A stretch of DNA of 64,000 nt, from the NCBI GenBank assembly GCA_032249135.1, contig JAVVGL010000006.1, positions 19,792-83,791 on the forward strand, in the 5' to 3' direction. The translations under genes and the position numbers were made by a program. The notes under the pieces were generated by a model, which ran no database searches, was not told the origin of the DNA, and saw only the letters and a list, made by a program, of their open reading frames with translations. Every line of letters starts with the position of its first letter. Positions within the stretch are counted from its first letter, which is position 1. Below are positions 1 to 49,852 of this stretch, piece after piece. The stretch is from Candidatus Calescibacterium sp. (GTDB lineage Bacteria; Calescibacteriota; Calescibacteriia; Calescibacteriales; Calescibacteriaceae).

Positions 1-2484
1 ATTTATGATACAACACCGGGAAGAGTTATTTTCTATCAGGATGTTCTCCCCAAAAAATTGTGCTTCAAACTTGTAAATAGACCTCTTGGGAAAAAAGAGA
101 TAATAGACCTTGTTGCAATTTCTCGGCAGATAGCAGGTGAAAAAGAAACAGTCATATTCCTTGACAAAATGAAAGAAATAGGCTTTGAGATGCTAACGAG
201 ATCTGGTTTTACTCTTTCCCCTGATCACTTTATAATTCCCGAGGAGAAGCAGAATCTCATTCAAGAAGCGGAAAAAATAGTTAAAGACATAGAAGATAAG
301 TATTCAAGAAGATTGATAACTTGGGGAGAAAGGTATAATAAAATAACTCAGGTGTGGCTTGACTATACAGAAAAAATTGGACAACTTGTGAAAGAAAAAA
401 TTTCAACGGAAGAGGTTATAGTGAATGGAACTCGTGTCAAGACTATGAGTAAAAATCCTGTGTTTCTGATGGTTCATTCTGGTTCTCGAGGTTCATATGA
501 GCAAATAAAACAGCTTGCTGGTATGAGAGGAATAGTTGCAAAACCAACGGGAGAGCTGATTGAGTTCCCTATAAAGCACAATCTCCGCGAAGGTCTTACT
601 CCGTTAGAATACTTTATTTCAACTCATGGGGGGAGAAAGGGGCTTGCTGATACAGCTCTGAAAACAGCAAAAGCTGGATATCTTACAAGAAAGCTCGTTG
701 ATGTTGCCCAGGATATAGTAGTTAAAATTGAGGACTGTGGAACTAAAAAATCAATAACTATGACTGCGCTAACGCATGGTGGTGAAGTTTTAAGGTCTCT
801 CTCTCAGAGAATTTTTGGAAGAGTTGCAGCAGAGGACATAACATCACCAGAAACCGGTGAGATAATAGTCAAAAAAGGAGAGTTCATTACCAAAGATAAA
901 GCAAAGCTCATAGAGGAACTCGGTATAGAATCTGTGAGAATAAGGAGTGTGATTACATGTGAGGTTGAGGATGGAGTATGTGTAAAATGCTATGGATGGG
1001 ACCTTTCTTCATGGAAACCCGTCACTCTCGGTGAGGCTGTTGGAATAATTGCAGCTCAAAGTATAGGGGAACCCGGAACACAGCTTACGATGAGAACATT
1101 CCACTACGGTGGTGTCGGAGCGATAGCGGAAAGAGGAGATATTATAGCACATCATGATGGAGTTGTAAGAATAGATGCTAAAACGATTGAACTTGCTATC
1201 TCGCGGGATGAGATGGAAAAGCTTGGTTTAAGCAAAGAGGAACTCATAGATGGAAAGAAAATTTTGCGTGTCGTATCAAGATTTGGGTATCTTGATATAC
1301 TATCAGATAAGGGAAGAGTTCTTGAAAGGTATGAGCTCCGCTATGGAGCTTCTGTTCTTGTTAGACCGCAGGATAAAGTTAAAAAAGGGCAAAGGCTTGC
1401 AGTGTGGAACCCATTTGCTAACCTTATCCTTACGCATGTTTCCGGGAAAGTTAAGTTCAAAGATATAGTATCAGGAGTTACTGTTGTAGAGAAGAAAGAA
1501 GAGGTAACAGGAAAAATTGTCAGGACAATTGTTGAACCAATAGGTGAAGCTTCGCAAAAGCTGAGACCTTCCATTATTGTTGAAACAGATAGTGGAGATG
1601 AGGTGGTATATCCGTTGCCGGTTAAGGCTACGATATCGGTTGAGGAAGGAGCATATGTTAGAGCAGGTGAGGAGATAGCAAGAGTTGAGACAGGGTATGC
1701 GAAAACCAAAGATATAACAACGGGTCTGCCCAAAGCTGAGGAATTCTTTGAGGTAAGGAAACCAAAAGATGAAGCGATAGTTTCTGAAATATCAGGTAGA
1801 GTTGAAAAAATAGAAGACCTCAGAGATGGAAGAAAGAAGGTTGTAATAAGAGCTGGGAGAATAGTAAGAGAATACAAAATTCCAAAAAATAGGCATGTTA
1901 TTGTCGTAGTGGGAGATGTGGTTAGCGCGGGAGAGGCTTTGACAGATGGAACACCGAACCCCAAAACACTTTTGAGAATAAGAGGACCAGAATATGTTGG
2001 CTACTTCCTCCTGAACGAGATACAGAAAATATACTCCTCTCAGGGAATAGATATAAACGATAAACACTTTGAGATAATAATCCGTCAGATGCTAAGGCGT
2101 GTGAAAATTAAAGATCCGGGAGATAGTCAGTTTACTCCGGGTGAAATTGTTGATAGATTCTTTGTAGATAGAGTAAATAAAGAGCTCAGGGCACAGGGCA
2201 AAAGACCAGCTACTTACGAGTACACTCTTTTAGGTATTACCAGAGCCGCTCTTTACTCCGATTCCTGGATTGCAGCAGCGTCTTTCCAAGAAACTCCAAA
2301 AGTTTTGGTTCAGGCAGCTATTGAATCAAAAATAGATTATCTCAAGGGGATAAAGGAGAATATAATTGTTGGAAAACTTATTCCGGCTGGAACAAACTTC
2401 CCACTATATAGAGATACTGGAATAACAATAGAGGATCAACATATAACTGAAGAAGCCGTTGAACGAGAATTACTTTCGGCATAG
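1..2484 (+). CDS. rpoC: DNA-directed RNA polymerase subunit beta-prime, C-terminal part (5' end upstream of window)
   Basis: Frame 1 is open from nt 1 (IYDTTPGRVIF...), so the ORF-track Met at 58 is internal. It carries canonical beta-prime blocks: AAQSIGEPGTQLTMRTFHYGG (trigger loop), TGLPKAEEFFEVRKPK, ITRAALYSDSWIAAASFQETPKVL and KENIIVGKLIPAGT. Confidence 0.95.
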   Translation: MYDTTPGRVIFYQDVLPKKLCFKLVNRPLGKKEIIDLVAISRQIAGEKETVIFLDKMKEIGFEMLTRSGFTLSPDHFIIPEEKQNLIQEAEKIVKDIEDKYSRRLITWGERYNKITQVWLDYTEKIGQLVKEKISTEEVIVNGTRVKTMSKNPVFLMVHSGSRGSYEQIKQLAGMRGIVAKPTGELIEFPIKHNLREGLTPLEYFISTHGGRKGLADTALKTAKAGYLTRKLVDVAQDIVVKIEDCGTKKSITMTALTHGGEVLRSLSQRIFGRVAAEDITSPETGEIIVKKGEFITKDKAKLIEELGIESVRIRSVITCEVEDGVCVKCYGWDLSSWKPVTLGEAVGIIAAQSIGEPGTQLTMRTFHYGGVGAIAERGDIIAHHDGVVRIDAKTIELAISRDEMEKLGLSKEELIDGKKILRVVSRFGYLDILSDKGRVLERYELRYGASVLVRPQDKVKKGQRLAVWNPFANLILTHVSGKVKFKDIVSGVTVVEKKEEVTGKIVRTIVEPIGEASQKLRPSIIVETDSGDEVVYPLPVKATISVEEGAYVRAGEEIARVETGYAKTKDITTGLPKAEEFFEVRKPKDEAIVSEISGRVEKIEDLRDGRKKVVIRAGRIVREYKIPKNRHVIVVVGDVVSAGEALTDGTPNPKTLLRIRGPEYVGYFLLNEIQKIYSSQGIDINDKHFEIIIRQMLRRVKIKDPGDSQFTPGEIVDRFFVDRVNKELRAQGKRPATYEYTLLGITRAALYSDSWIAAASFQETPKVLVQAAIESKIDYLKGIKENIIVGKLIPAGTNFPLYRDTGITIEDQHITEEAVERELLSA

Positions 2485-31984: not shown

Positions 31985-32809
31985 ATGTCTTGCTCTGTGT
32001 TCTTTATTTTTGCTCTTTTTCTTGTCTCTCAGCAAACAAGTATATATGATGGGATTTTACTTGAAGTTGAAAGACTTGTTGGCTACCTTGAAACCATCCA
32101 AAGACAAGATGGAAGGTTCTCAAATTCAAACTCAGATTTTGAGGATGTCCTTGTTTTATTTTCTCTTTATGATGCCGAAAGAGTAGCTCACCCCAAAAAT
32201 AAAATTCATGAACATTTTTCAAAAATAATAAGAAAGGCAGATGAAAATGGTGTTTTTTCTTATCTTTCAAATTCCAGGGACCCAAAGGCACGCTTTAAAT
32301 GGTATAGATTTTTGGTCTATACAAATTCTTTGAAGCAACCAGACCTTAAAGCGGAGATAGAGAAGATAGACTGGCAGAAGCAAAACGATGTGGAATTTTT
32401 TGCTGTGGTTCATGAAACCGCCTCAATGGCGGGTCTCAAATATGATTTTTTATGCCAAAAAATTGAAAGTTTCCTTGAAAAATTCATACAAAATCCAAAA
32501 ATTCAAGACCTTGAAAAAGTGTATTTTATTTTTCAGTCGCTCAATTACTCAAACTGTGAAAAGTTTAGCAAACATTCTCCATTTGTTTTTGAGGTTTTGA
32601 AAGGGGTGGAGAAACTTAAAGATCAGCTCAAAAAAAATCCTTCTTTCGTATGTATGTACTTTGATGTTTTATCTAATTTTTCTCGCTCTCGTTCTTTTAA
32701 CTTTGAAGAATTTGAGCTTTTGTTTGATGCTTTGAAAAAAGTGAGGAGACCAAAAGAAGTTGCAATATGTATAAGCTCTGCTGTGAAAGTTCTTTTGAGA
32801 AGGATGTAA
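31985..32809 (+). CDS. Exported hypothetical protein (weak prenyltransferase-repeat-like motif), immediately upstream of giant gene 1
   Basis: It has an N-terminal hydrophobic signal/anchor (MSCSVFFIFALFLVS). VGYLETIQRQDGRFS resembles an L..Q..DG.F alpha/alpha-toroid repeat. I recognised no other motif. Confidence 0.4.
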   Translation: MSCSVFFIFALFLVSQQTSIYDGILLEVERLVGYLETIQRQDGRFSNSNSDFEDVLVLFSLYDAERVAHPKNKIHEHFSKIIRKADENGVFSYLSNSRDPKARFKWYRFLVYTNSLKQPDLKAEIEKIDWQKQNDVEFFAVVHETASMAGLKYDFLCQKIESFLEKFIQNPKIQDLEKVYFIFQSLNYSNCEKFSKHSPFVFEVLKGVEKLKDQLKKNPSFVCMYFDVLSNFSRSRSFNFEEFELLFDALKKVRRPKEVAICISSAVKVLLRRM

Positions 32810-32878
32810 TAAAATCTTGTTTTTTCTTCCCAAAATGATTATTATATATAAAAATTGCTAAATTTTTTTGTAAAAGGT

Positions 32879-35800
32879 ATGACAGAACAAAAAAAATTGG
32901 GAGCAATTTTACTCAATATTTTCATCGTCTTATCTTTACCACTGATAATAAAAGGGGAAGAAATAAAAAGAGGAGACACTGATAACCAATATGAAACAAA
33001 AGGAGAGAACACCTATGACCAATATGACGAACAAAGAATAATGCGCGAATTAGAGCTTTTACCTATACTATCTCTTGAAAGAACAAGGAGAGAAACGGGA
33101 AGAGCGGGAAGAATGTATATTGGGTTTGCTGATGAAGTTTTCAGAGGTAGAATTATTCCGAAAGTTGTTCCAAAAACCGCAACGCTCGCAATTGATGGCA
33201 TAGGCTGCGGAATATCAACCGGAAATATCATCGGTCCTTCCTCAACTTGGGGTCAATCATTCCAAGCAAGGTGGGGATATGAAGTACTGAATGTTGGTTG
33301 TCCAAACGACGATGCCGGTTGGTGTGACGATAAAGACTGGCCAGCACCATCTGCTTGTGTTGATGCTAACAGAGATTATATTTGCGACTGCGGATGGGGC
33401 GGATGCGTTGGAGGTTGTGATGATATAAACGCTCCGGACTGTGGATATAGAGAAAGGTTAGGGGATATGACGGGAGAATTTGAAGGGCTTTTACAATATG
33501 TAGCCGAACGACTAAAAGAAGCTCTCGTTCAGCGAGATTTGAGAATACTTGTAAATAAATCTCTTTGTGGAAAAGGTAGTTGTGTAGATACACCGTGGCC
33601 ACTTGACCACCTCTGCCTCACAGTAAATCAAGACCCAACAGATAATGCTAATATCAGGGAGAGATGTTGGGCACCGAGTAAGCCTTTGGACCCCTGGGTT
33701 GTATACTACAACAAAACTTTTGTTGAGGTATTTCCAAATCCCGGTAAAGGAACAATTGATGTTATTTTACTTTTGTGGGCAGAAGGAGGTGTTCCAGGGG
33801 ACCCTCAAGGTATCCCTGTGAGTAATAGAAGTAATGGCAACACAAATCCATCAAGTGATGTTTGTGTTGAGTTGAGGTTGTGTGGAGATTCAAGTGGTGG
33901 TGGTGCTTTCTATGCCGATGCCATAGCTATAAAAGCCTCTCTTTATCTTGTGGTTCAAGATAACTTAGTAGATGTCTGTGTAAAAGATACTGAACTTGAT
34001 ATTATAAATTCTCATGTTTACCTTGAAGGTTGTGTTGCTGGGTGTTTCTGCGATGCCAATCCAGAAAGCCCGCCTTTGGGTAATCAGAGTTTATCGGATG
34101 AAGGATTAGAGGAGACACTTGGGGCCTCAATTGCTCCTGGAATTGATAATTTCCTTCACGGAAACTGCCCAGGTGATAGAGCCTTATCTTTGTGCCCAAA
34201 AGTTGCTTTCAGAGGTTGGGGTTACCGGGGACCCTGTGCCCCATCAATAGGGTGTAGTTTTGATGCAACAACTGGTGAGATGTCTTGTACTTGTCAGGTC
34301 TGCCCTGAAAATAATAGCTATGGACCTTGCCCCCCTGGTTCTGTGCAGTGCACTCACGGAATTTTTCCTATTGATTTAAATGAGCTTTTGGGAGGGAGAA
34401 GCTTTTCTGTTACGCAATATTGTGGGAGACCTCAACATTTTGCTGGTGAGAATGCCGCGCACCTTGACCCTCTCAAATGTTGGCCAGGACACTACAAAGC
34501 AGGCGACCCAACTCCACCTCCTCCTTTTAACAACCCTCTTACATGGTATGGGACTATGAGCTGTGGTAAGGGGATATATGATATTGGTTGTTATATGTCA
34601 AAACCTCCTATTTTGACTGGAACCGGTTGTTCTGCTCAGATTGATGCGGCAATAAGACCTCGTGATTTGTCTCAGTCTTGCTCTGAGATGAGTTTTGACG
34701 GCTATCCTGCATCTCCTACCTTTTCGGGGACATCTGGTTTTGTTGTAAGAGCCGCATTTGATGCTGATAACTACACGCCTGAACCTCTTCTTTTTCCTCA
34801 GTCGGTCCCAGCGGCTGGTACAAACTGCAATATTCAGGGAGATGGAGTAGATGATGACAATGGCTACTGTTCTGTTTCAATTCCTTTTACTTTTAATTTT
34901 TACTTTGGCTCATACACTTCTATGTGTATTTCTACTAATGGTTTTGTAAGATTTGGCGCGGCAGGTGCAGATTGTGGAGACGCAACTCCCGACCCCATCC
35001 CGTATACTAATACTCCTAATGCGTGGGCTGGACCGATGTGGGCAGACCTTTCCATAGAGAACGAGTATCTCTACTATGTCTCAGAAGTTGTTCCAGCAAC
35101 TTGGATAGATGCTTACTCTTGTAGAATCATGGGAGCTATGGATGTTGGGGCGAGCGCGGGCGACCCGTTAGATGATACATTAGTTGGAAATGTAAATTCT
35201 GCTTGCGCCGGCTCAAATATCTGTGGCGTCTCATCCCTTTGCAACGATGAACATTCTGAACCATCCTACACAACATACAACGACTGTTCATATAACCAAT
35301 CCATAGGATGGAGTTTTCCATTTTTTGGTTCAAATTTCTCAAATGTATGCATAAGTTCTAATGGTATAATATATTTTAGGAACGATGGAATATGTCCAGC
35401 AGGTGCTTTGAATATACCAACTTCACCAGCAGCCGGGGGACCTAACTACTCAATAGCAGTCGTATGGAAAGACCTTGACCCCCTCACAATGACCTCAGAT
35501 GAAGATTGCAGCGGGTGTGCAAGTTGTTCTTTTCTTTGCACCGGGCATGATAGGCACAGAGGGGAGTTTAATGGCTTTGGTTCGGTCTACAAGCATTACA
35601 TATCTGGCACATGCCCAACTTCCGGTGGTTCGTGTTCCGCTTTGGTTATAACATGGTATAGGGTTGTAGATTTTAATGTCCAACCAAATAATGCAGATAA
35701 CTGCTCTGATAATAACGATTCAAATGCAGATTGTACAAACTACGCAGCTGGAAGAGATTGGTGTGAAGTCAGGGAAGGAAGTAACCTCTATGACTGCGGT

Positions 35801-38800
35801 TGTAATCCAGATTGTGGCGCATATGGTGGTTGCAACGCCACAGACGACAGCAACTGTAGGAGAATTTGCAGGTGTTGTATTCAGGGTTGTCAGGATCAGG
35901 CGAGGGCTGGGCAACCGAATGAATGGGAAGCTTATAAGCGGCAGGTTCAAAACACAAACACATTTCAGGTCGTCTTGTGGCAAGATGGAACAATTGATAT
36001 AAATGTAAAGGAATTTACAGATACCGCCGGAAGCTGTAATGGAACAACGCCACGCGCTCGTATGTTTTTGAAACAAAATTCATCAAGATATATTGAGTTA
36101 AGCATAGCACCGAATAAGTCTTATAGAATCTTCCCCCTGGGTTATGCAAACACAGTTTGTGGTACCGGGCGAGTAATATATGGTTCTGGAACTTGCACAA
36201 GAACAACCGGTTCAGGAACTGCAAACTGTGTCAGAGTCAGATGGGAAAATGTCCATGTGAAAGGGCAAGGCATATGCATAACTATGGAGGCAAGAATTAT
36301 GCAAGATTACACGGGGACGGGAGCGGGAGCAGGTTCAAACTACGATATTGTGTTTTTCATGGAAAGATTTGAGGTTCCGATAGCTTCACTATCTCCGGAG
36401 CAAAGGAAACAGCTGGCAAGACTATCAGACTTTACAAGGAGCCCCGGTGTGGAAAACGCTGCCGGTGATGTGGGAGCTTATGCTTATATACCTCCTGATG
36501 GGAATGGTTTGGTTATGAGGTGGCAAGGTCCGTGGACATACTGGATTGGTGTGGGTATATCACAAGATTTGATGACTGACGCATCAAACATGCTATACTC
36601 TGGGGTGATGTGTCTTTCTGCAAATGTGGGCGGAGTTAATACTGCAGATACCCAAAAATACTACGATATTTTTACTACAATTTTACCGTTTAACTTATCA
36701 TCAGCCGATTCTGCAAAAACACTATTTCCATTTATCACGAATTATTGCGATCCGGATGGTCAGGTTGAGTTGAGGATGAAACCATCTGGTGTGACGCAAG
36801 CGAGCGCAAGAACAGGCTTGCAAATCCCATCTGTTTTAATTGCAGGCTCTACCCTTGATACATTCCCTTATGAGGGAGCGCTCGGAATTTCTGTTCCACA
36901 AACATGCACCGAGTGGGGGTTTTCACGATGTGCAGATGTCGTCTTCTCTTTCCCGAATTTCAAAGCGGAAATTTGGTGCCACAAAAACAACCTCCCAACC
37001 TTTGCGTGGATAAAAGACGGTATAACAGGTCCTCCAACCTATGTTTTGGGAATAACATCAGATTGGTTTATCGGAGCCGATATAGAATACGCTTACATAT
37101 CAACGGGAATTTCTATGCAGGCAAAATTGCAGGATGCGTCAGGAGGAAATGAATATGTCTATGTGAAAATAGCCGATGTCTCCTGTGCAATAGCTTCGGG
37201 AGATATACTTGAATATTGGATAAGGGTTGACCCAGCTACAAGACGCTGCGCCCTTGATGCATATTTCTCGGGGGGAGGCGTTCTGAGAAATGTACCAGGA
37301 CTTACCGACCAGAACGGAATACCTGCTCACCCTGATGGTAATTTGCAGACTTTCTGTCCTGACCCTAACTGCACAAAGACTGCACCAAACACAAGTTGTA
37401 GGTGCCCCGTACAAGATTGGTATAGGAGAAGAATATCGCTTTCTAGTTTTGCTGGGCAAACTTTGCAGGAGCTTGCAATAGGTGTTGAGGAAGATGCAAA
37501 CGGTGGATATTCTTGCCAAATAATGGGTATTAAGGTTTTAAATAGTTCCGGTGGAGTAAAATGCTCTTTTTCTGGTCTAAGAGATATGGGAATATGGGCT
37601 CGAGGAGGGATAAGCAGCATGCAACGATATTCTTACTCTGTTGCTGGGAACACCATAGGAGATATATTTATTTTTGCAGATGTGAAACCGAACCCAAGAC
37701 AGATTCAATCTTCTGTTTTGCTACCAAGTCAAATTATAGGAGGAATCGCAGACATTTTCGGAGATATTCTCTCTGGTTGGTTGCAAGGCAGAATAAGAAC
37801 AAAATTCAATATACCTTTGGAAATAAACATGCCTTTGCATTTTGTTTTCAAAAAAGTCAAACCACAAGGACCTGATATTCAAACAGATGAGACTAACTTT
37901 AACCCATGGCTAAGTTATGGTTATCCTCCCGGAAATATAGCTCCTGATTACTTGGTTATTTACATAGATAGATTTTTGGGGAATATAGATGTTGTATCTT
38001 TGATGATGGGTGGTCTTTCTTTGGCTCCACCCGCACCTTATCGTAGGTCTCAAGTTTCAACATCTGAACTTATATCTTTTGATATTCCAGAGTGTTCCGG
38101 GAAAGGTGAAAAATGCGTTCTGACTCCTGATGTTGCTAAAAAATATTTCACAAATTTTGGTCCAAATAATGTGAATTTGAGATTTGGAGGAGGTGTTATA
38201 AAATACTCGTGGAGGAAAAATGGGAGTATGTGGAAGCTTCCAAATTCTGCCGCACAAAGCACACTTGATATAGGTACCTTGCTTGAAGGACCAAACATAA
38301 TAGAGATAGCTCCAATATTAGATGATGGGTACTTTTACGATGAAAATCCAGTTATTTTGGCTATATATATGGATACCCAACCACCTTATGTTAGTTTGAG
38401 AGGAGGGAGGGAGCTTGAAACAGGTATTATGTATTTTTCCGGTGTTCCAGTGTTTGTTTTAGAATACTATGATATGAGCGGTGAGGTTTTCTGGTCTTAT
38501 AAGATAGATGATGGTGAGTGGTCAGAATGGATAAAAGGAGGAGTTGATAATAACGGTAGCGGAACAGGTAGAATAAAAGCAGATGTGAGCAAAGGCACAC
38601 ATGTTCTTTACCTGAAATTGAAAGATAAATGGGGTAATGAAACATCAATTTCTAAACCATTTTATTTCGCAAAGGAGGGAGTTTTTGGATGCTCATCGCT
38701 GAGCGAAGTTGAAGTCCAAGAGATTGTATGGAAGGGAATTTCTTTTGCTATTTTCTTCTTCCCAGTTTTAGTCGTAGTTCTTATGGTAAAAAGGAACGGT

Positions 38801-38827
38801 AAAAAAACGGTAAAAAGAAAGAAATGA
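32879..38827 (+). CDS. Giant Cys-rich secreted surface protein 1 (~1982 aa) with NIDO-like modules, two C-terminal Y_Y_Y/Ig-like domains and a Cys-motif/TM/polybasic C-terminal signal
   Basis: It is a single uninterrupted ORF. The signal peptide is MTEQKKLGAILLNIFIVLSLPLIIKGEE (the ORF track uses TTG 32855). I hand-counted about 84 Cys. Details are given in the findings. Confidence 0.85.
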   Translation: MTEQKKLGAILLNIFIVLSLPLIIKGEEIKRGDTDNQYETKGENTYDQYDEQRIMRELELLPILSLERTRRETGRAGRMYIGFADEVFRGRIIPKVVPKTATLAIDGIGCGISTGNIIGPSSTWGQSFQARWGYEVLNVGCPNDDAGWCDDKDWPAPSACVDANRDYICDCGWGGCVGGCDDINAPDCGYRERLGDMTGEFEGLLQYVAERLKEALVQRDLRILVNKSLCGKGSCVDTPWPLDHLCLTVNQDPTDNANIRERCWAPSKPLDPWVVYYNKTFVEVFPNPGKGTIDVILLLWAEGGVPGDPQGIPVSNRSNGNTNPSSDVCVELRLCGDSSGGGAFYADAIAIKASLYLVVQDNLVDVCVKDTELDIINSHVYLEGCVAGCFCDANPESPPLGNQSLSDEGLEETLGASIAPGIDNFLHGNCPGDRALSLCPKVAFRGWGYRGPCAPSIGCSFDATTGEMSCTCQVCPENNSYGPCPPGSVQCTHGIFPIDLNELLGGRSFSVTQYCGRPQHFAGENAAHLDPLKCWPGHYKAGDPTPPPPFNNPLTWYGTMSCGKGIYDIGCYMSKPPILTGTGCSAQIDAAIRPRDLSQSCSEMSFDGYPASPTFSGTSGFVVRAAFDADNYTPEPLLFPQSVPAAGTNCNIQGDGVDDDNGYCSVSIPFTFNFYFGSYTSMCISTNGFVRFGAAGADCGDATPDPIPYTNTPNAWAGPMWADLSIENEYLYYVSEVVPATWIDAYSCRIMGAMDVGASAGDPLDDTLVGNVNSACAGSNICGVSSLCNDEHSEPSYTTYNDCSYNQSIGWSFPFFGSNFSNVCISSNGIIYFRNDGICPAGALNIPTSPAAGGPNYSIAVVWKDLDPLTMTSDEDCSGCASCSFLCTGHDRHRGEFNGFGSVYKHYISGTCPTSGGSCSALVITWYRVVDFNVQPNNADNCSDNNDSNADCTNYAAGRDWCEVREGSNLYDCGCNPDCGAYGGCNATDDSNCRRICRCCIQGCQDQARAGQPNEWEAYKRQVQNTNTFQVVLWQDGTIDINVKEFTDTAGSCNGTTPRARMFLKQNSSRYIELSIAPNKSYRIFPLGYANTVCGTGRVIYGSGTCTRTTGSGTANCVRVRWENVHVKGQGICITMEARIMQDYTGTGAGAGSNYDIVFFMERFEVPIASLSPEQRKQLARLSDFTRSPGVENAAGDVGAYAYIPPDGNGLVMRWQGPWTYWIGVGISQDLMTDASNMLYSGVMCLSANVGGVNTADTQKYYDIFTTILPFNLSSADSAKTLFPFITNYCDPDGQVELRMKPSGVTQASARTGLQIPSVLIAGSTLDTFPYEGALGISVPQTCTEWGFSRCADVVFSFPNFKAEIWCHKNNLPTFAWIKDGITGPPTYVLGITSDWFIGADIEYAYISTGISMQAKLQDASGGNEYVYVKIADVSCAIASGDILEYWIRVDPATRRCALDAYFSGGGVLRNVPGLTDQNGIPAHPDGNLQTFCPDPNCTKTAPNTSCRCPVQDWYRRRISLSSFAGQTLQELAIGVEEDANGGYSCQIMGIKVLNSSGGVKCSFSGLRDMGIWARGGISSMQRYSYSVAGNTIGDIFIFADVKPNPRQIQSSVLLPSQIIGGIADIFGDILSGWLQGRIRTKFNIPLEINMPLHFVFKKVKPQGPDIQTDETNFNPWLSYGYPPGNIAPDYLVIYIDRFLGNIDVVSLMMGGLSLAPPAPYRRSQVSTSELISFDIPECSGKGEKCVLTPDVAKKYFTNFGPNNVNLRFGGGVIKYSWRKNGSMWKLPNSAAQSTLDIGTLLEGPNIIEIAPILDDGYFYDENPVILAIYMDTQPPYVSLRGGRELETGIMYFSGVPVFVLEYYDMSGEVFWSYKIDDGEWSEWIKGGVDNNGSGTGRIKADVSKGTHVLYLKLKDKWGNETSISKPFYFAKEGVFGCSSLSEVEVQEIVWKGISFAIFFFPVLVVVLMVKRNGKKTVKRKK
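38678..38824 (+). other. C-terminal tripartite sorting-signal-like segment (GVFGCS motif, TM helix, polybasic tail)
   Basis: The tail reads GVFGCSSLSEVEVQEIVWKGISFAIFFFPVLVVVLMVKRNGKKTVKRKK*. The Cys codon is at 38690-38692. Confidence 0.6.
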
Positions 38828-45820: not shown

Positions 45821-48800
45821 ATGGCAAAGCATATAATAAAAAGTTTGTTTGGTGAGAGAAAAAGTAAAAAAGTTGAGCTTTTTGCTTCTTTCTTATTTAC
45901 TTCTTTCTTCTCGTTGTTGTTGCTGATATTATTTCCTCAAAAGAAATCTTTTGCTACACCTTTACCCGTTACAACATTTCCCTCTTATCTGCAAAACTCG
46001 GTTGTTTTAAGATTAACAGGGTGTTTAAATCAGTGGCTGCAACAAAATTTCAACTACCTTTTTGTAGATGATGGTGTCTCAGGTTCAGGAGATGAGCTAT
46101 GTCCTGCTGGGCAATATCAAGGAACTCTTGGTTCTTTCTCCACTGTTTCTGTTCCGTGTGGATGGAAGACTTTGAACATGCTAAATGCTCTGATTATGGA
46201 TTTACTTGACAAACAGAAGAAAATTCAAGGCTTAACTCCGCCTGCTGATGATGACCCAGTTATGTGCTGTTGCGATCCTACAAAAGACTCAGAAAACTGC
46301 ACAGGACCTGCTACTCCCGGTTGTCCCTCTCAGTTTCCTAATAGAGGAAAATGCATGGCTTTAAAACCGGAAGCTACAAATTACTTTGTAGTTAATTTCC
46401 TTGACACCTCAGTTACTCCTAATATTATCCGAGGTTATCAGGCATGGGGTGTAACATGGGTTGGAGCTCCGGGTTCAACAACAGCTTATTGGTCAGGGCT
46501 TTTAGACCAGTGTCTCCCTATACCTCTGCTGGGTAATTTGTGTCTGAATTTATCTTTAAACGATGTCTGCAATGCCACAACATGTGGTCCCATCTTAAAT
46601 TACAACGGAACTACGCATCCAGGTAACTGTTGGTACACTCGTACATCGGGAGGGGATCCCGCTAATAACTGTGATGATGATACAACAAACGGATATCGAA
46701 GCGCAAACCGGGATAACTGGATTTTAAGATATAACCCTGTTGGTGGTGTCTCTCTAAATTTCTCTGTCGGTGAGAGCGTTGGTGTTTCATGTGGTATGGG
46801 TGGGGCTCCTTACAGCTATAACGGTAAAATTTTTACGGGAAATGAAGGGTTTATTACTATTGAGCTGTTTTTAAATCCTATTTCTATAGATATAGATGCT
46901 GCAACTCCATCTGCAGGAAATAGAATAACATTTACTGCTTCTTCCCCTCCACCACTTGCTACTAATGTTGCTCCTGGGAGAACAGATTGTAATGATTCTC
47001 AGGCGAACCAGCAAGGTGATTGCTATGTTAGAGCTTATCTTCGTGCAAGAGGAGCTTTGAAACTCAAAGTTGGTGCAACTTTATATTTGGAACACAGAAC
47101 CGGCTCTTGGCCGCACCTACAAGATGTTGGAATAGCCGTAAGAGAAATCAACTTTTCAGAAGCTCCCTGGATATCTCTTGCGTTGGATTGGACCTGGTCT
47201 GAACAAAGCCCGAACTGCACAGCAACAAGTACTCTTTGTGTCAGAAAAAATATAACTGTGAAAGCGATGAAAACTATTGAATTTATAGATGTTGTTTTGA
47301 GAGGTCTTTTCAGATTTGCTTACATTCCCTCGGGGCTTCAACAATATTTTGGTCCGGTTGTTTTTGATATAAGTGGTCTTACACAGATGAAAACCTCTTA
47401 CTTTTTCCCAACCTGGGTCAGACCAATTACAACAGATGATTTACTTATAGATATAGCCCTGGGTGGAGACCCGTATTTGGGAACACAAGTCCTGCGGTCT
47501 AAATCTTGTTTTGCAAGCAACGGAGTGGGTCCTGGAACCAACCGAAATGAGCTTTATCTTATAGGTTCTGCTATGATAGACCTTGACCTTTTCAGGAGAG
47601 GAACAGATTGGAAAAATACAACGCAGTGGTATGATCACAGAATTACTTCTTGCGGATATGTTCCACCTCCTTATGGCAACCATCCAGCCCCTTCTATGAT
47701 TGCAGGTCCTTCTTCGTTTTTCCAGCTCCCGCACGCAGGTTCAAGAGATTCACTTTCTCTTACCTCATGTGAAGCTAATGGGACATTTGTTGGTCTTTCA
47801 ATTTTCCAGAATGTCTTTACATATTTGGTTTCCGATATTGCAACATCTGGTTTAATGTGCCTTGCAATATCTCAAAAAGGAGAGGGATTTGCGTCAGGAC
47901 TTCCTTTGCCTATTTGGACAGTTGGACAAATGAAGCTTATGATTCCTGACCTTTATAACTTCCTTGAATCAGAGTTCGGCTCTAATGTAACAGATATGCC
48001 TATGATTTTTGTATTCAAACCGAAACCATACGCAGCTTATCCCGGATTCCCTCAAACACCACAAGCTTCGTTTGCAAATGATTTGCCTCCAAATACTGTT
48101 GACCCACTCCCAATAACTGCTGATGTACTACTTACACTACCAAATAACGATTTTGAAATTTGGGTTGATGTTGATAACGAACTTGAACAGTGGGGACTTG
48201 GACCAGGGGAAGTAGGGGGAACTTGTACTTATGGTCTAACTCCATCTCCGGTAGGTTGGTGTACTGCTTTCCCTACTGGAACAACTCCTCCGGCTCAAGG
48301 AACAATAGATGTGGGTCCAGTTGGAAATGCATTTCGTAATAACTTTCCAGATTGCGTCTCTTTTATTGATTGTGATTCAACAGTAGGAAATCCATCTGAT
48401 AGGGTAAGGGAAAGAAGGTTTATAGCTCAGTTTAATGTTGGGGTAACTTTGGCTTTGGATTTGAATTTCCTTGGCTGCGGAAGAGGAACATATAAAGTTT
48501 TTGGGAACCTGGCAGCTTACGGTTTCCCATCTACACTCGCAGGTGGTGGATGGTATAACCCTTGGAACCCAGCAACAACCGGAAACTGCACAACCGTAAG
48601 CCACCTGAGGAGAGTAGATTTGACTTTGGGGATGATTTCTCGTGTTGGATCAGTTGATGTTACAAACGATTCAGGAACCGTAAAAGTTTATTATCCGTTT
48701 TCTAATAATACATTTGCTGGTTATCTTGCAGATTTTATAGCTGTTATACTTTCTGGTGCTTTGGCTCTTGACGCTCAGCTCGGATATACACTCTCTGCAA

Positions 48801-49852
48801 TTTTAGACCCAGACGACAACTTATACAGCGCAACGCCTGCAAACAATAATGTTGTTCGTATAGGAGGACACGCAAGAGGTCAAGGAGCTGATAGACTTAT
48901 TCACACATATATCGCAAGAGACGATGTGGGGAACAGTGACTCAGATCCATCAGGTTATCCACAACAGTTTCTCACAATTGCAATTGATTTTCAGGGGTTT
49001 ATTCATCCTAACTTCTTTTATGGGGTTATATCTCAGCTTTTGAGTGGTTCTACTAATATATTTGGTTCTGCTCCAAGATTTGTTGCTGATGGGAATGGTG
49101 AGGTTAATCTTGAATCTTTGAACCCGCTTGTTGAAGTTTGGCAGAAAATAAGCAACGGAGGAGAGTATTTCATAAGTTTCAGAGATATTCAGGAGTTTGT
49201 GAAGAAAATAGAAAAGTCTGGACTTATTGTTCCTATGAAAAAGAATGAAAATGGCGGAATAGATGATTTCCCACCAGAAACTGTGGTAGAATATGTTCAA
49301 GCTTCTCAACCCAAAACTATAATAAAGCTCTCGTGTGTTGATGATTATACAAAGCCAGATAACTGTTGGTTTGGATGGAGATGGAAAGGCAAGATGTGGC
49401 AGCCCTGGATTCAATCTAATACAATTGAAATAAGAGGACTTCCGGATGGCGAGTATGAAATTGAAGTGAGAGCCCTTGATGAAAGAGCTATTCCTGATAT
49501 TACCCCTGTAACCGTAAAATTCGTGGTAGATGATACTCCACCATCTATTTTCTTCCCGAAAAAAGCTTTCTTCAAAAGAGGAGATGTTTTGCGAGTTGAA
49601 CTTTGGGACTACATAACAAAACCAGACGAGATAGAGGTCTCATACAAGATTGATAACTCTGATTGGTCAAGCTGGCAGAAAGTAGATTTCAACGATAAAG
49701 GTTTAGGTATAAAGCTTATAAGACTTCCTGATGAAGTTGGGACACACAAAGTTATAGTAAGAGCCAGAGACAAAAAAGGCAATATTGAAACCCGTGAATT
49801 TTACTTTGATATAGGAGTTCCGGCAAAGGGAATTTTCTCCTGCTCACAATAA
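45821..49852 (+). CDS. Giant Cys-rich secreted surface protein 2 (1343 aa), paralog of giant protein 1, ending at the Cys motif
   Basis: There is a strong SD (AAGGGGGT) and a signal peptide (...LLILFPQKKSFATP). It has a Cys-rich N-terminal third, a central block and two C-terminal Y_Y_Y/Ig-like domains collinear with giant 1. The protein ends ...AKGIFSCSQ*. Confidence 0.88.
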   Translation: MAKHIIKSLFGERKSKKVELFASFLFTSFFSLLLLILFPQKKSFATPLPVTTFPSYLQNSVVLRLTGCLNQWLQQNFNYLFVDDGVSGSGDELCPAGQYQGTLGSFSTVSVPCGWKTLNMLNALIMDLLDKQKKIQGLTPPADDDPVMCCCDPTKDSENCTGPATPGCPSQFPNRGKCMALKPEATNYFVVNFLDTSVTPNIIRGYQAWGVTWVGAPGSTTAYWSGLLDQCLPIPLLGNLCLNLSLNDVCNATTCGPILNYNGTTHPGNCWYTRTSGGDPANNCDDDTTNGYRSANRDNWILRYNPVGGVSLNFSVGESVGVSCGMGGAPYSYNGKIFTGNEGFITIELFLNPISIDIDAATPSAGNRITFTASSPPPLATNVAPGRTDCNDSQANQQGDCYVRAYLRARGALKLKVGATLYLEHRTGSWPHLQDVGIAVREINFSEAPWISLALDWTWSEQSPNCTATSTLCVRKNITVKAMKTIEFIDVVLRGLFRFAYIPSGLQQYFGPVVFDISGLTQMKTSYFFPTWVRPITTDDLLIDIALGGDPYLGTQVLRSKSCFASNGVGPGTNRNELYLIGSAMIDLDLFRRGTDWKNTTQWYDHRITSCGYVPPPYGNHPAPSMIAGPSSFFQLPHAGSRDSLSLTSCEANGTFVGLSIFQNVFTYLVSDIATSGLMCLAISQKGEGFASGLPLPIWTVGQMKLMIPDLYNFLESEFGSNVTDMPMIFVFKPKPYAAYPGFPQTPQASFANDLPPNTVDPLPITADVLLTLPNNDFEIWVDVDNELEQWGLGPGEVGGTCTYGLTPSPVGWCTAFPTGTTPPAQGTIDVGPVGNAFRNNFPDCVSFIDCDSTVGNPSDRVRERRFIAQFNVGVTLALDLNFLGCGRGTYKVFGNLAAYGFPSTLAGGGWYNPWNPATTGNCTTVSHLRRVDLTLGMISRVGSVDVTNDSGTVKVYYPFSNNTFAGYLADFIAVILSGALALDAQLGYTLSAILDPDDNLYSATPANNNVVRIGGHARGQGADRLIHTYIARDDVGNSDSDPSGYPQQFLTIAIDFQGFIHPNFFYGVISQLLSGSTNIFGSAPRFVADGNGEVNLESLNPLVEVWQKISNGGEYFISFRDIQEFVKKIEKSGLIVPMKKNENGGIDDFPPETVVEYVQASQPKTIIKLSCVDDYTKPDNCWFGWRWKGKMWQPWIQSNTIEIRGLPDGEYEIEVRALDERAIPDITPVTVKFVVDDTPPSIFFPKKAFFKRGDVLRVELWDYITKPDEIEVSYKIDNSDWSSWQKVDFNDKGLGIKLIRLPDEVGTHKVIVRARDKKGNIETREFYFDIGVPAKGIFSCSQ
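49829..49849 (+). other. C-terminal GIFSCSQ motif (Cys motif without following TM/basic tail)
   Basis: This is the last 7 codons before TAA at 49850-49852. Compare GVFGCSS (giant 1) and GEFGCSC (M6 protease). Confidence 0.5.

Follow-up and report, generated by a model that had tools for sequence, protein, structure and literature searches.

In the 64,000-nucleotide stretch of Candidatus Calescibacterium sp. DNA analysed here (the window; contig JAVVGL010000006.1, positions 19,792 to 83,791 of the forward strand), a single open frame on the plus strand, 32855..38827, encodes a giant protein of 1990 amino acids. Residues ~666-1232 of this protein probably form a domain-in-domain unit, in which one NIDO-type domain, module A, is split in two and a second one, module B, is nested inside it. 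NIDO has long been known as an extracellular domain, present in nidogen, SNED1, alpha-tectorin and mucin-4. In the arrangement that we propose, the outer NIDO beta-sandwich would be split after its fifth strand and filled by a cassette of residues 744-1123, the core of which would be a second, complete NIDO beta-sandwich (residues 809-1095); module B would in turn carry two disulfide-rich loop expansions, one after its W-x-D-L-D motif and the other before its T-F-Q strand. Residue numbers are counted from the TTG codon at 32855, and "family" denotes the Calescibacterium-type relatives of the giant protein.

A sequence-only reading of this DNA had picked out two NIDO-like modules by their motifs, and the strings that it quoted are present, in frame, at the coordinates given for them in the 1990-residue open reading frame (ORF), far above chance. 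DDDNGYCSVS starts at residue 666 (nucleotide 34850), EYLYYV lies at residue 737, NQSIGWSFPFFG at 814 (35294), VVWKDLDP at 869 and NTNTFQVVLW at 1033 (35951), and INVKEF ends at about nucleotide 36016. The reading had placed both modules within 34850-36015; the start of this region is right, but module B extends past its end to residue 1095 (nucleotide 36139). Module A as it was quoted covers only NIDO positions 2-76, half a domain, with the C-half at residues 1124-1232, and the single Cys-rich insert of ~150 residues described for module B is actually two Cys-rich inserts (877-909 and 941-1030) around two core strands.

The pieces follow one another along the chain in the order N-half of A, N-part of B, C-part of B, C-half of A. 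The N-half of module A (residues 666-743, nucleotides 34850..35083, plus strand as for all pieces) covers NIDO positions 2-76 with the elements FTFNFY, CISTNGFVRF, GPMWADLS and EYLYYV, and is recognized by hmmsearch (independent E-value, i-E, 2.2e-19) and by hhalign (probability 99.4, E 8e-22). The N-side linker of the inserted cassette (744-808; 35084..35278) has four Cys and is shared, together with module B, with the subtilase P0005 according to BLASTP. Module B opens with its N-part (809-876; 35279..35482; NIDO 3-68), which contains FPFFG, CISSNGIIYF and IAVVWKDLDP and is found by hmmsearch (i-E 9.5e-15) and in the hhalign alignment of the whole module. Insert 1 (877-909; 35483..35581), Cys-rich with four Cys, is delimited by the hhalign and family alignments. 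It is followed by the middle strands SVYKHY...CSALVITWYRVVDF (910-940; 35582..35674; NIDO ~69-92), which are placed by global hhalign alignment and by strands at local positions 271-280 and 287-296 of an AlphaFold2 (AF2) model, with a predicted local distance difference test (pLDDT) score of 82-86. Two NIDO core strands (SVYKHY...ALVITWYRVVDF) accordingly sit between the inserts of module B, after the W-x-D-L-D motif. Insert 2 (941-1030; 35675..35944), rich in Cys, Asp and Asn, holds 12 Cys. The C-part of module B (1031-1095; 35945..36139; NIDO ~93-157), with NTFQVVLWQDGTIDINV, RMFLKQ and YRIFPL, holds most of the best, sub-threshold Pfam stretch (residues 1026-1046) and is matched by hmmsearch (i-E 7.8e-5) and hhalign. 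A C-side linker with two Cys (1096-1123; 36140..36223), defined by the family alignment and the AF2 model, leads back to the C-half of module A (1124-1232; 36224..36550; NIDO 79-161), with CVRVRWENVHV, ICITMEARI, YDIVFFMERF, SPGVENAAGDVG and LVMRW. The outer domain spans residues 666-1232 and is split at NIDO position ~77, after the fifth strand, by the cassette of ~380 residues; the inner domain is 287 residues long, with inserts of 33 and 90 residues and an excess of ~120. Neither is a single contiguous domain of ~160-190 residues.

The assignment to NIDO does not follow from the Pfam model by itself. In the native sequence, NIDO (PF06119) was the sole Pfam family listed, in keeping with the sequence-only reading, but its scores fell short of the gathering cut-off of 25 bits, with 15.1 bits over the full protein, 20.5 bits over residues 640-1240 and, at best, 22.7 bits over residues 666-1054 (389 residues). 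The match aligns only the NTFQVVLWQDG stretch, best at residues 1026-1046. The same sub-threshold match, again as the sole Pfam family, occurs in seven of the eight family members. Such a HMMER match is suggestive but insufficient to assign the domain. A profile of residues 640-1240 aligned with seven relatives (alignment A1) was searched against 1.84 billion representative proteins and retrieved 2720 proteins at E<=1e-3, 315 of them at E<=1e-10. The majority are giant proteins with multiple repeats, which align to the two N-halves (profile positions ~27-100 and 185-253). When ten short matches were scanned with Pfam, nine exceeded the cut-off for NIDO, with 31-86 bits, and the tenth had no match. 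The first search had also yielded P0011, an S8 subtilase with four canonical NIDO repeats (66 bits in Pfam).

The four Pfam-positive repeats of P0011 served as the seed of a bacterial NIDO profile of 444 domains and 163 positions, from which the family proteins were excluded. With this profile, hmmsearch found three segments of the giant protein (P0001): residues 667-741 (model 2-74), 811-876 (model 5-66) and 1026-1057 (model 87-119), with the i-E values given above for the corresponding pieces. By hhalign, the whole of module B (809-1095) aligns to NIDO 3-157 of 163 (probability 99.2%, E 6.9e-20). The homology of both modules to NIDO, as proposed from the motifs, is thus upheld against Pfam-positive bacterial domains, with E 7e-20 (module B) and E 8e-22 (N-half of A). 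When both inserts were cut out of module B in silico, the remaining 181 residues scored 28.0 bits in Pfam (E 2.6e-6), above the cut-off. Sliding windows of 110 residues over the whole protein/family alignment scored against the NIDO profile only within residues 606-1265 (E 2.5e-13 to 5e-6), while the best control window outside reached E 0.012. We conclude from these profile comparisons that modules A and B both belong to the bacterial branch of NIDO domains, as divergent members. The two modules match each other at E 1.2e-12 with ~21% identity, which is no nearer than each is to generic NIDO, so that a recent self-duplication of module A as the source of module B is not indicated.

The evidence for nesting comes from the segment beyond module B. 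The N-half of A lacks the C-part of the NIDO domain, and this part is supplied by residues 1124-1232, on the far side of module B, which is why we place B within A. The missing motifs were first read in this segment from the family alignment. Against the deep profile, residues 1124-1232 align by hhalign to NIDO 79-161 (probability 91.9%, E 7.1e-7), so that the two halves are complementary and do not overlap (2-76 and 79-161). The sliding window 1101-1210, at E 5e-6, stands apart from the control windows, which reached 0.012 or worse. Against a small profile built from the four repeats, the same C-half gave E 0.15, which is not significant. When residues 655-745 were spliced in silico to residues 1115-1235, the product aligned to NIDO 1-163 in one alignment (hhalign probability 99.6%, E 1.5e-24), and the score rose to 147.5 from 116.6 for the N-half alone.

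Structure prediction agrees with this picture. The AF2 model of residues 640-1240, built from an eight-sequence alignment, has a mean pLDDT of 58 and a predicted template modelling (pTM) score of 0.64; 268 of its 601 residues fall below pLDDT 50. Confident strands fall on every NIDO core piece (pLDDT 73-83 in the N-half of A, 79-93 in the B core and 73-89 in the C-half of A), the secondary structure of these pieces is all-beta, and the model leaves the inserts disordered. That the pTM reaches 0.64 in spite of so many low-scoring residues suggests a single defined assembly of the confident pieces, in which the two halves of A may pack into one sandwich.

Several observations weigh against the nested arrangement and give its competitors their footing. 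The native sequence stays under the Pfam gathering score (15.1-22.7 versus 25 bits), spliced module A gives no Pfam match whatever, and HMMER alone detects no significant C-half of A in P0001 (residues 1124-1149, i-E 2.8), which was found only by profile-profile comparison. In addition, Foldseek of the AF2 model against the PDB returned no match below E 1. This last result is uninformative with regard to NIDO, for the PDB contains no resolved NIDO domain. A NIDO-like region occurs in one PDB sequence only, 8gl6_D, which matches a P0011 repeat at E 1e-10, and in that entry the resolved part is limited to the C-terminal domain (PMC10994853). A study of SNED1 states that no NIDO structure was available and that the domain has no assigned function (10.1101/2020.07.27.223107). 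The low Pfam scores, for their part, are what a real NIDO pair would give, since both of its domains are discontinuous.

One could ask on these grounds whether the modules belong to some other beta-sandwich family, with the short motifs (FPFYG, NG, WxDLD, TFQ) arising by convergence. The native score below the Pfam cut-off and the lack of a PDB structural match would fit such an origin; yet there is no resolved NIDO to be matched, the profile-profile matches are collinear over the full length at E 1e-20 to 1e-24, nine of the ten sampled relatives of the family profile are Pfam-positive NIDO proteins, and module B without its inserts rises above the cut-off. We consider convergence hardly credible. 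A tandem layout, in which module A is short and self-contained, module B comes next with one insert of ~150 residues and the segment after it is unrelated, is also improbable, if less so. It would account for HMMER alone finding only the N-half of A (the match at 1124-1149 having an i-E of 2.8) and for spliced A having no Pfam match. However, the module A that it requires is NIDO 2-76, half a sandwich, the supposedly unrelated residues 1124-1232 fit exactly the missing positions 79-161 (E 7e-7) and stand out from the control windows, and residues 910-940, which would fall inside the one insert, align to core positions ~69-92 and form two confident AF2 strands.

Comparison among relatives also bears on the nested arrangement. 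The halves of A always co-occur across family members of 36-82% identity. In P0021, a more distant member, all four pieces are found separately by HMMER, in the order N, N, C, C, and the relative at locus L002, from another genus of the same family, keeps this nested, collinear arrangement, with individually weak matches for the middle and C-side pieces. The S8 subtilase P0005 matches P0001 in BLASTP only over residues 740-1096 (49% identity, E 1e-91) and has neither half of A, which indicates that the B cassette is autonomous. Among 158 NIDO proteins, 410 of 482 domain matches are contiguous and of full length, and the N-N pattern is confined to the family and its distant member P0026; the 410 contiguous bacterial domains are longer than the model by 5 residues in the median and by 40 at most.

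These relatives also help in weighing a further possibility, that rearrangement or deletion left three decayed NIDO remnants, namely a full domain between an orphan N-half and an orphan C-half, with no outer domain at all and with the halves acting as spacers or pairing elsewhere. We regard it as unlikely, though the least so of the alternatives. In its favour, the C-half of A is weakly conserved relative to generic NIDO. On the other hand, the halves complement each other without overlap or gap (2-76 and 79-161), they occur together in all members and are both missing from the B-only P0005, and AF2 places confident strands on both within a whole piece of pTM 0.64. Half beta-sandwiches alone are moreover not expected to be stable. 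A split module A with module B nested inside it remains our preferred description.

The inserts of module B vary considerably in the family. The 156 residues between DLDP and NTNTFQ in the giant protein are made up of insert 1, the two core strands and insert 2, the last of which holds 23 Asp and Asn residues. In relatives, the span from DLDP to ALVITW (insert 1 plus the first core strand) ranges from 49 to 254 residues with 4-38 Cys, and the span from ITW to NTFQ from 69 to 106 residues with 10-12 Cys. The Cys counts of these loop spans are mostly even, which agrees with the presence of disulfides. Both inserts have an AF2 pLDDT below 50, and insert 2 matched no family in Pfam. Its derivation as a copy of the Cys/Asp-rich patch at residues 149-201 was considered and is unsupported (BLASTP E 0.11).

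As regards distribution, the sequence-only reading had thought a NIDO domain unusual in a bacterial surface protein. This view could not be maintained: besides the 2720 proteins retrieved at E<=1e-3 and the nine Pfam-positive matches of the ten sampled, PF06119 scored above its cut-off in a Thermus thermophilus control genome, and of 34 unrelated bacterial genomes that were sampled, 7 had generic NIDO N-half matches. Bacterial surface proteins with NIDO are thus ordinary; what is unusual is the nested build with its inserts. Partner domains in the sampled bacterial matches include the sorting tail of the type IX secretion system (T9SS), FlgD-Ig, M4/M36 peptidase and DUF11, as well as the S8 peptidase of P0011. 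Within the 2.1-Mb assembly of the host (87% complete), the deep NIDO profile found no NIDO-like ORF besides that of the giant protein, and a direct six-frame search of the genome with PF06119 had no match at E<=0.01. The complete nested unit is present in five of seven genomes of the same family; in one, it is divided over two ORFs. At locus L005 (same genus; G001:C48:712-3139), the orthologous nested-NIDO region runs over two adjacent ORFs on the same strand, covering profile positions 1-305 and 285-623; a frameshift, decay to a pseudogene or an error of assembly may underlie the split. The window also encodes a second giant protein, a paralogue of 1343 residues (45821-49852), in which no NIDO-like segment was found; it has a sub-threshold Y_Y_Y match near its C-terminus (16.6 versus 26.6 bits). 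The NIDO-in-NIDO unit lies within the part that distinguishes the first giant protein from the second.

Possible phage counterparts were also encountered. Foldseek of the AF2 model against BFVD gave a sole match, A0A6J5P7T5 from an uncultured Caudovirales phage (507 residues; E 1.4e-4 over 362 columns, template modelling score 0.24-0.28), a possible case of NIDO-like domains in a phage protein. A tblastn search of phage genomes with a bacterial NIDO repeat gave one weak match, LR745206.1 26005-26298, in a 635-kb uncultured phage record that differs from the BFVD entry (29.6% identity over 91 residues, E 1e-4).

The NIDO family is known, and its bacterial members are visible in Pfam-type searches. 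A search of the accessible literature found no paper on bacterial NIDO domains or on NIDO nested in NIDO. With the metazoan domain (PF06119, SMART SM00539; nidogen-1/2, SNED1, alpha-tectorin, mucin-4, Drosophila mesh and C. elegans DEX-1), the present unit shares the ordered motifs and a collinear profile match, and both are beta-rich, in our case by prediction; from its sequence features, the unit would be extracellular as well. Unlike the metazoan domain, the unit has a thermophilic bacterial host, a native score under the Pfam cut-off and discontinuous domains, and it lacks the metazoan partner domains EGF, AMOP and VWD. Its nearest sequence relatives are the contiguous bacterial NIDO-like repeats (profile E 1e-12 to 1e-24), which likewise occur in large multi-domain surface or secreted proteins, such as P0011 (S8 subtilase, four repeats), P0048 (M4/M36 peptidase), T9SS cargo and the N-terminal region of a Flavobacterium johnsoniae RemA-type adhesin (PDB sequence 8gl6_D, residues 53-184). 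Whereas the 410 contiguous bacterial domains carry an excess of at most 40 residues, the excess here is ~380 residues in the outer domain and ~120 in the inner one.

Domain insertions in solved structures have reportedly been surveyed by Aroul-Selvam, Hubbard and Sasidharan in 2004. As in domain insertions generally, the parent here appears, by sequence, to be cut at a surface loop and the insert to be autonomous, as P0005 indicates; what differs is that parent and insert are of the same family, an arrangement for which we found no description. The closest parallel for the insertion sites is P0023, a multi-NIDO protein of 3821 residues from the representative library and outside the family. 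It has an independent 97-residue, Cys-containing insert at NIDO 76-77, as here, and a 40-residue Cys-rich expansion in the loop before TFQ (regions 1988-2234 and 608-805). These inserts are short loops and not a whole second NIDO domain. Given this independent expansion at matching positions, the NIDO loops look permissive for insertion.

Turning to the whole protein, an identical database copy, P0002, has 1982 residues and starts at the ATG at 32879 (MTEQKK...), 8 codons downstream of the TTG; on this account ATG 32879 is probably the true start rather than TTG 32855. The N-terminus combines a basic stretch with a hydrophobic helix (KKLGAILLNIFIVLSLPLIIKG) that could act as signal or anchor. 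At the C-terminus (window 38678-38827, residues 1943-1990), GVFGCSS is followed, after ~20 residues, by a hydrophobic, transmembrane-type helix and a basic KRNGKKTVKRKK tail, and this Cys-bearing end looks like a sorting or anchoring signal. The distant relatives P0007-P0010 have a comparable C-terminus of MGCPVIGS, helix and basic tail. In view of the N-terminal signal or anchor, the 84 Cys of the protein and the Cys-bearing membrane tail, we infer that the giant protein would be exported and membrane-tethered at the surface, with the NIDO unit on the extracytoplasmic side. Its closest relatives come from hot-spring metagenomes, one of them labelled Candidatus Calescibacterium. When window positions 32001-38000 are set against the flanks, G+C content is 0.43-0.45 across 34-38 kb, where the giant gene lies, compared with 0.32-0.34 in its neighbours, which fits a composition rich in Gly, Cys, Pro and Asp.

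The N-terminal region (residues 200-645, window 33452-34789) is highly conserved within the family, with HGIFPIDLNE...RSFSVTQYCGRP, YGTMSCGKGIYD, LTGTGCS, IRPRD and many invariant Cys. AF2 gave a poor model of it (mean pLDDT 40.9), and a homologue search with residues 90-640 found no relatives beyond the family. Pfam had no matches in the N-terminal 639 or C-terminal 750 residues, NCBIfam had none in the whole giant protein, and hidden Markov model searches with the A1 and A2 family profiles returned none from the PDB.

The role of the unit can be discussed only tentatively. It is possible, though we do not hold it as the likelier case, that the double NIDO serves as a scaffold or adhesion module, a suggestion that draws on its sequence features, on the association of NIDO domains in bacteria with adhesin-like T9SS cargo and with secreted peptidases, and on the variability in loop length. 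In such a role, the double NIDO would be a rigid, disulfide-stapled extracellular scaffold mid-way along the giant, membrane-tethered protein, the disulfide-rich expansions of its loops would stabilize it at high temperature, and the Cys-rich loops would form variable surfaces for adhesion, binding, or envelope or matrix contacts. More doubtful still is the wider idea that the bacterial NIDO domain is an insertion-tolerant display scaffold, in which three loops (near positions ~67, 77 and 92) accept disulfide-rich modules of 30 to ~250 residues or a whole NIDO domain, and that here a rigid two-lobed unit presents variable Cys-knot loops as its binding surface. If this were true, the unit would serve as a compact and thermostable model from a prokaryote, with which a first NIDO structure could be solved and NIDO ligands studied.

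To conclude, our work does not describe a new kind of system, and its value is structural and evolutionary, and modest. Bacterial NIDO-like domains are abundant, and one family of thermophiles appears to have built a NIDO-in-NIDO unit with disulfide-rich loops. The finding points to insertion-tolerant loops in the NIDO fold and provides a thermostable candidate for structural work.

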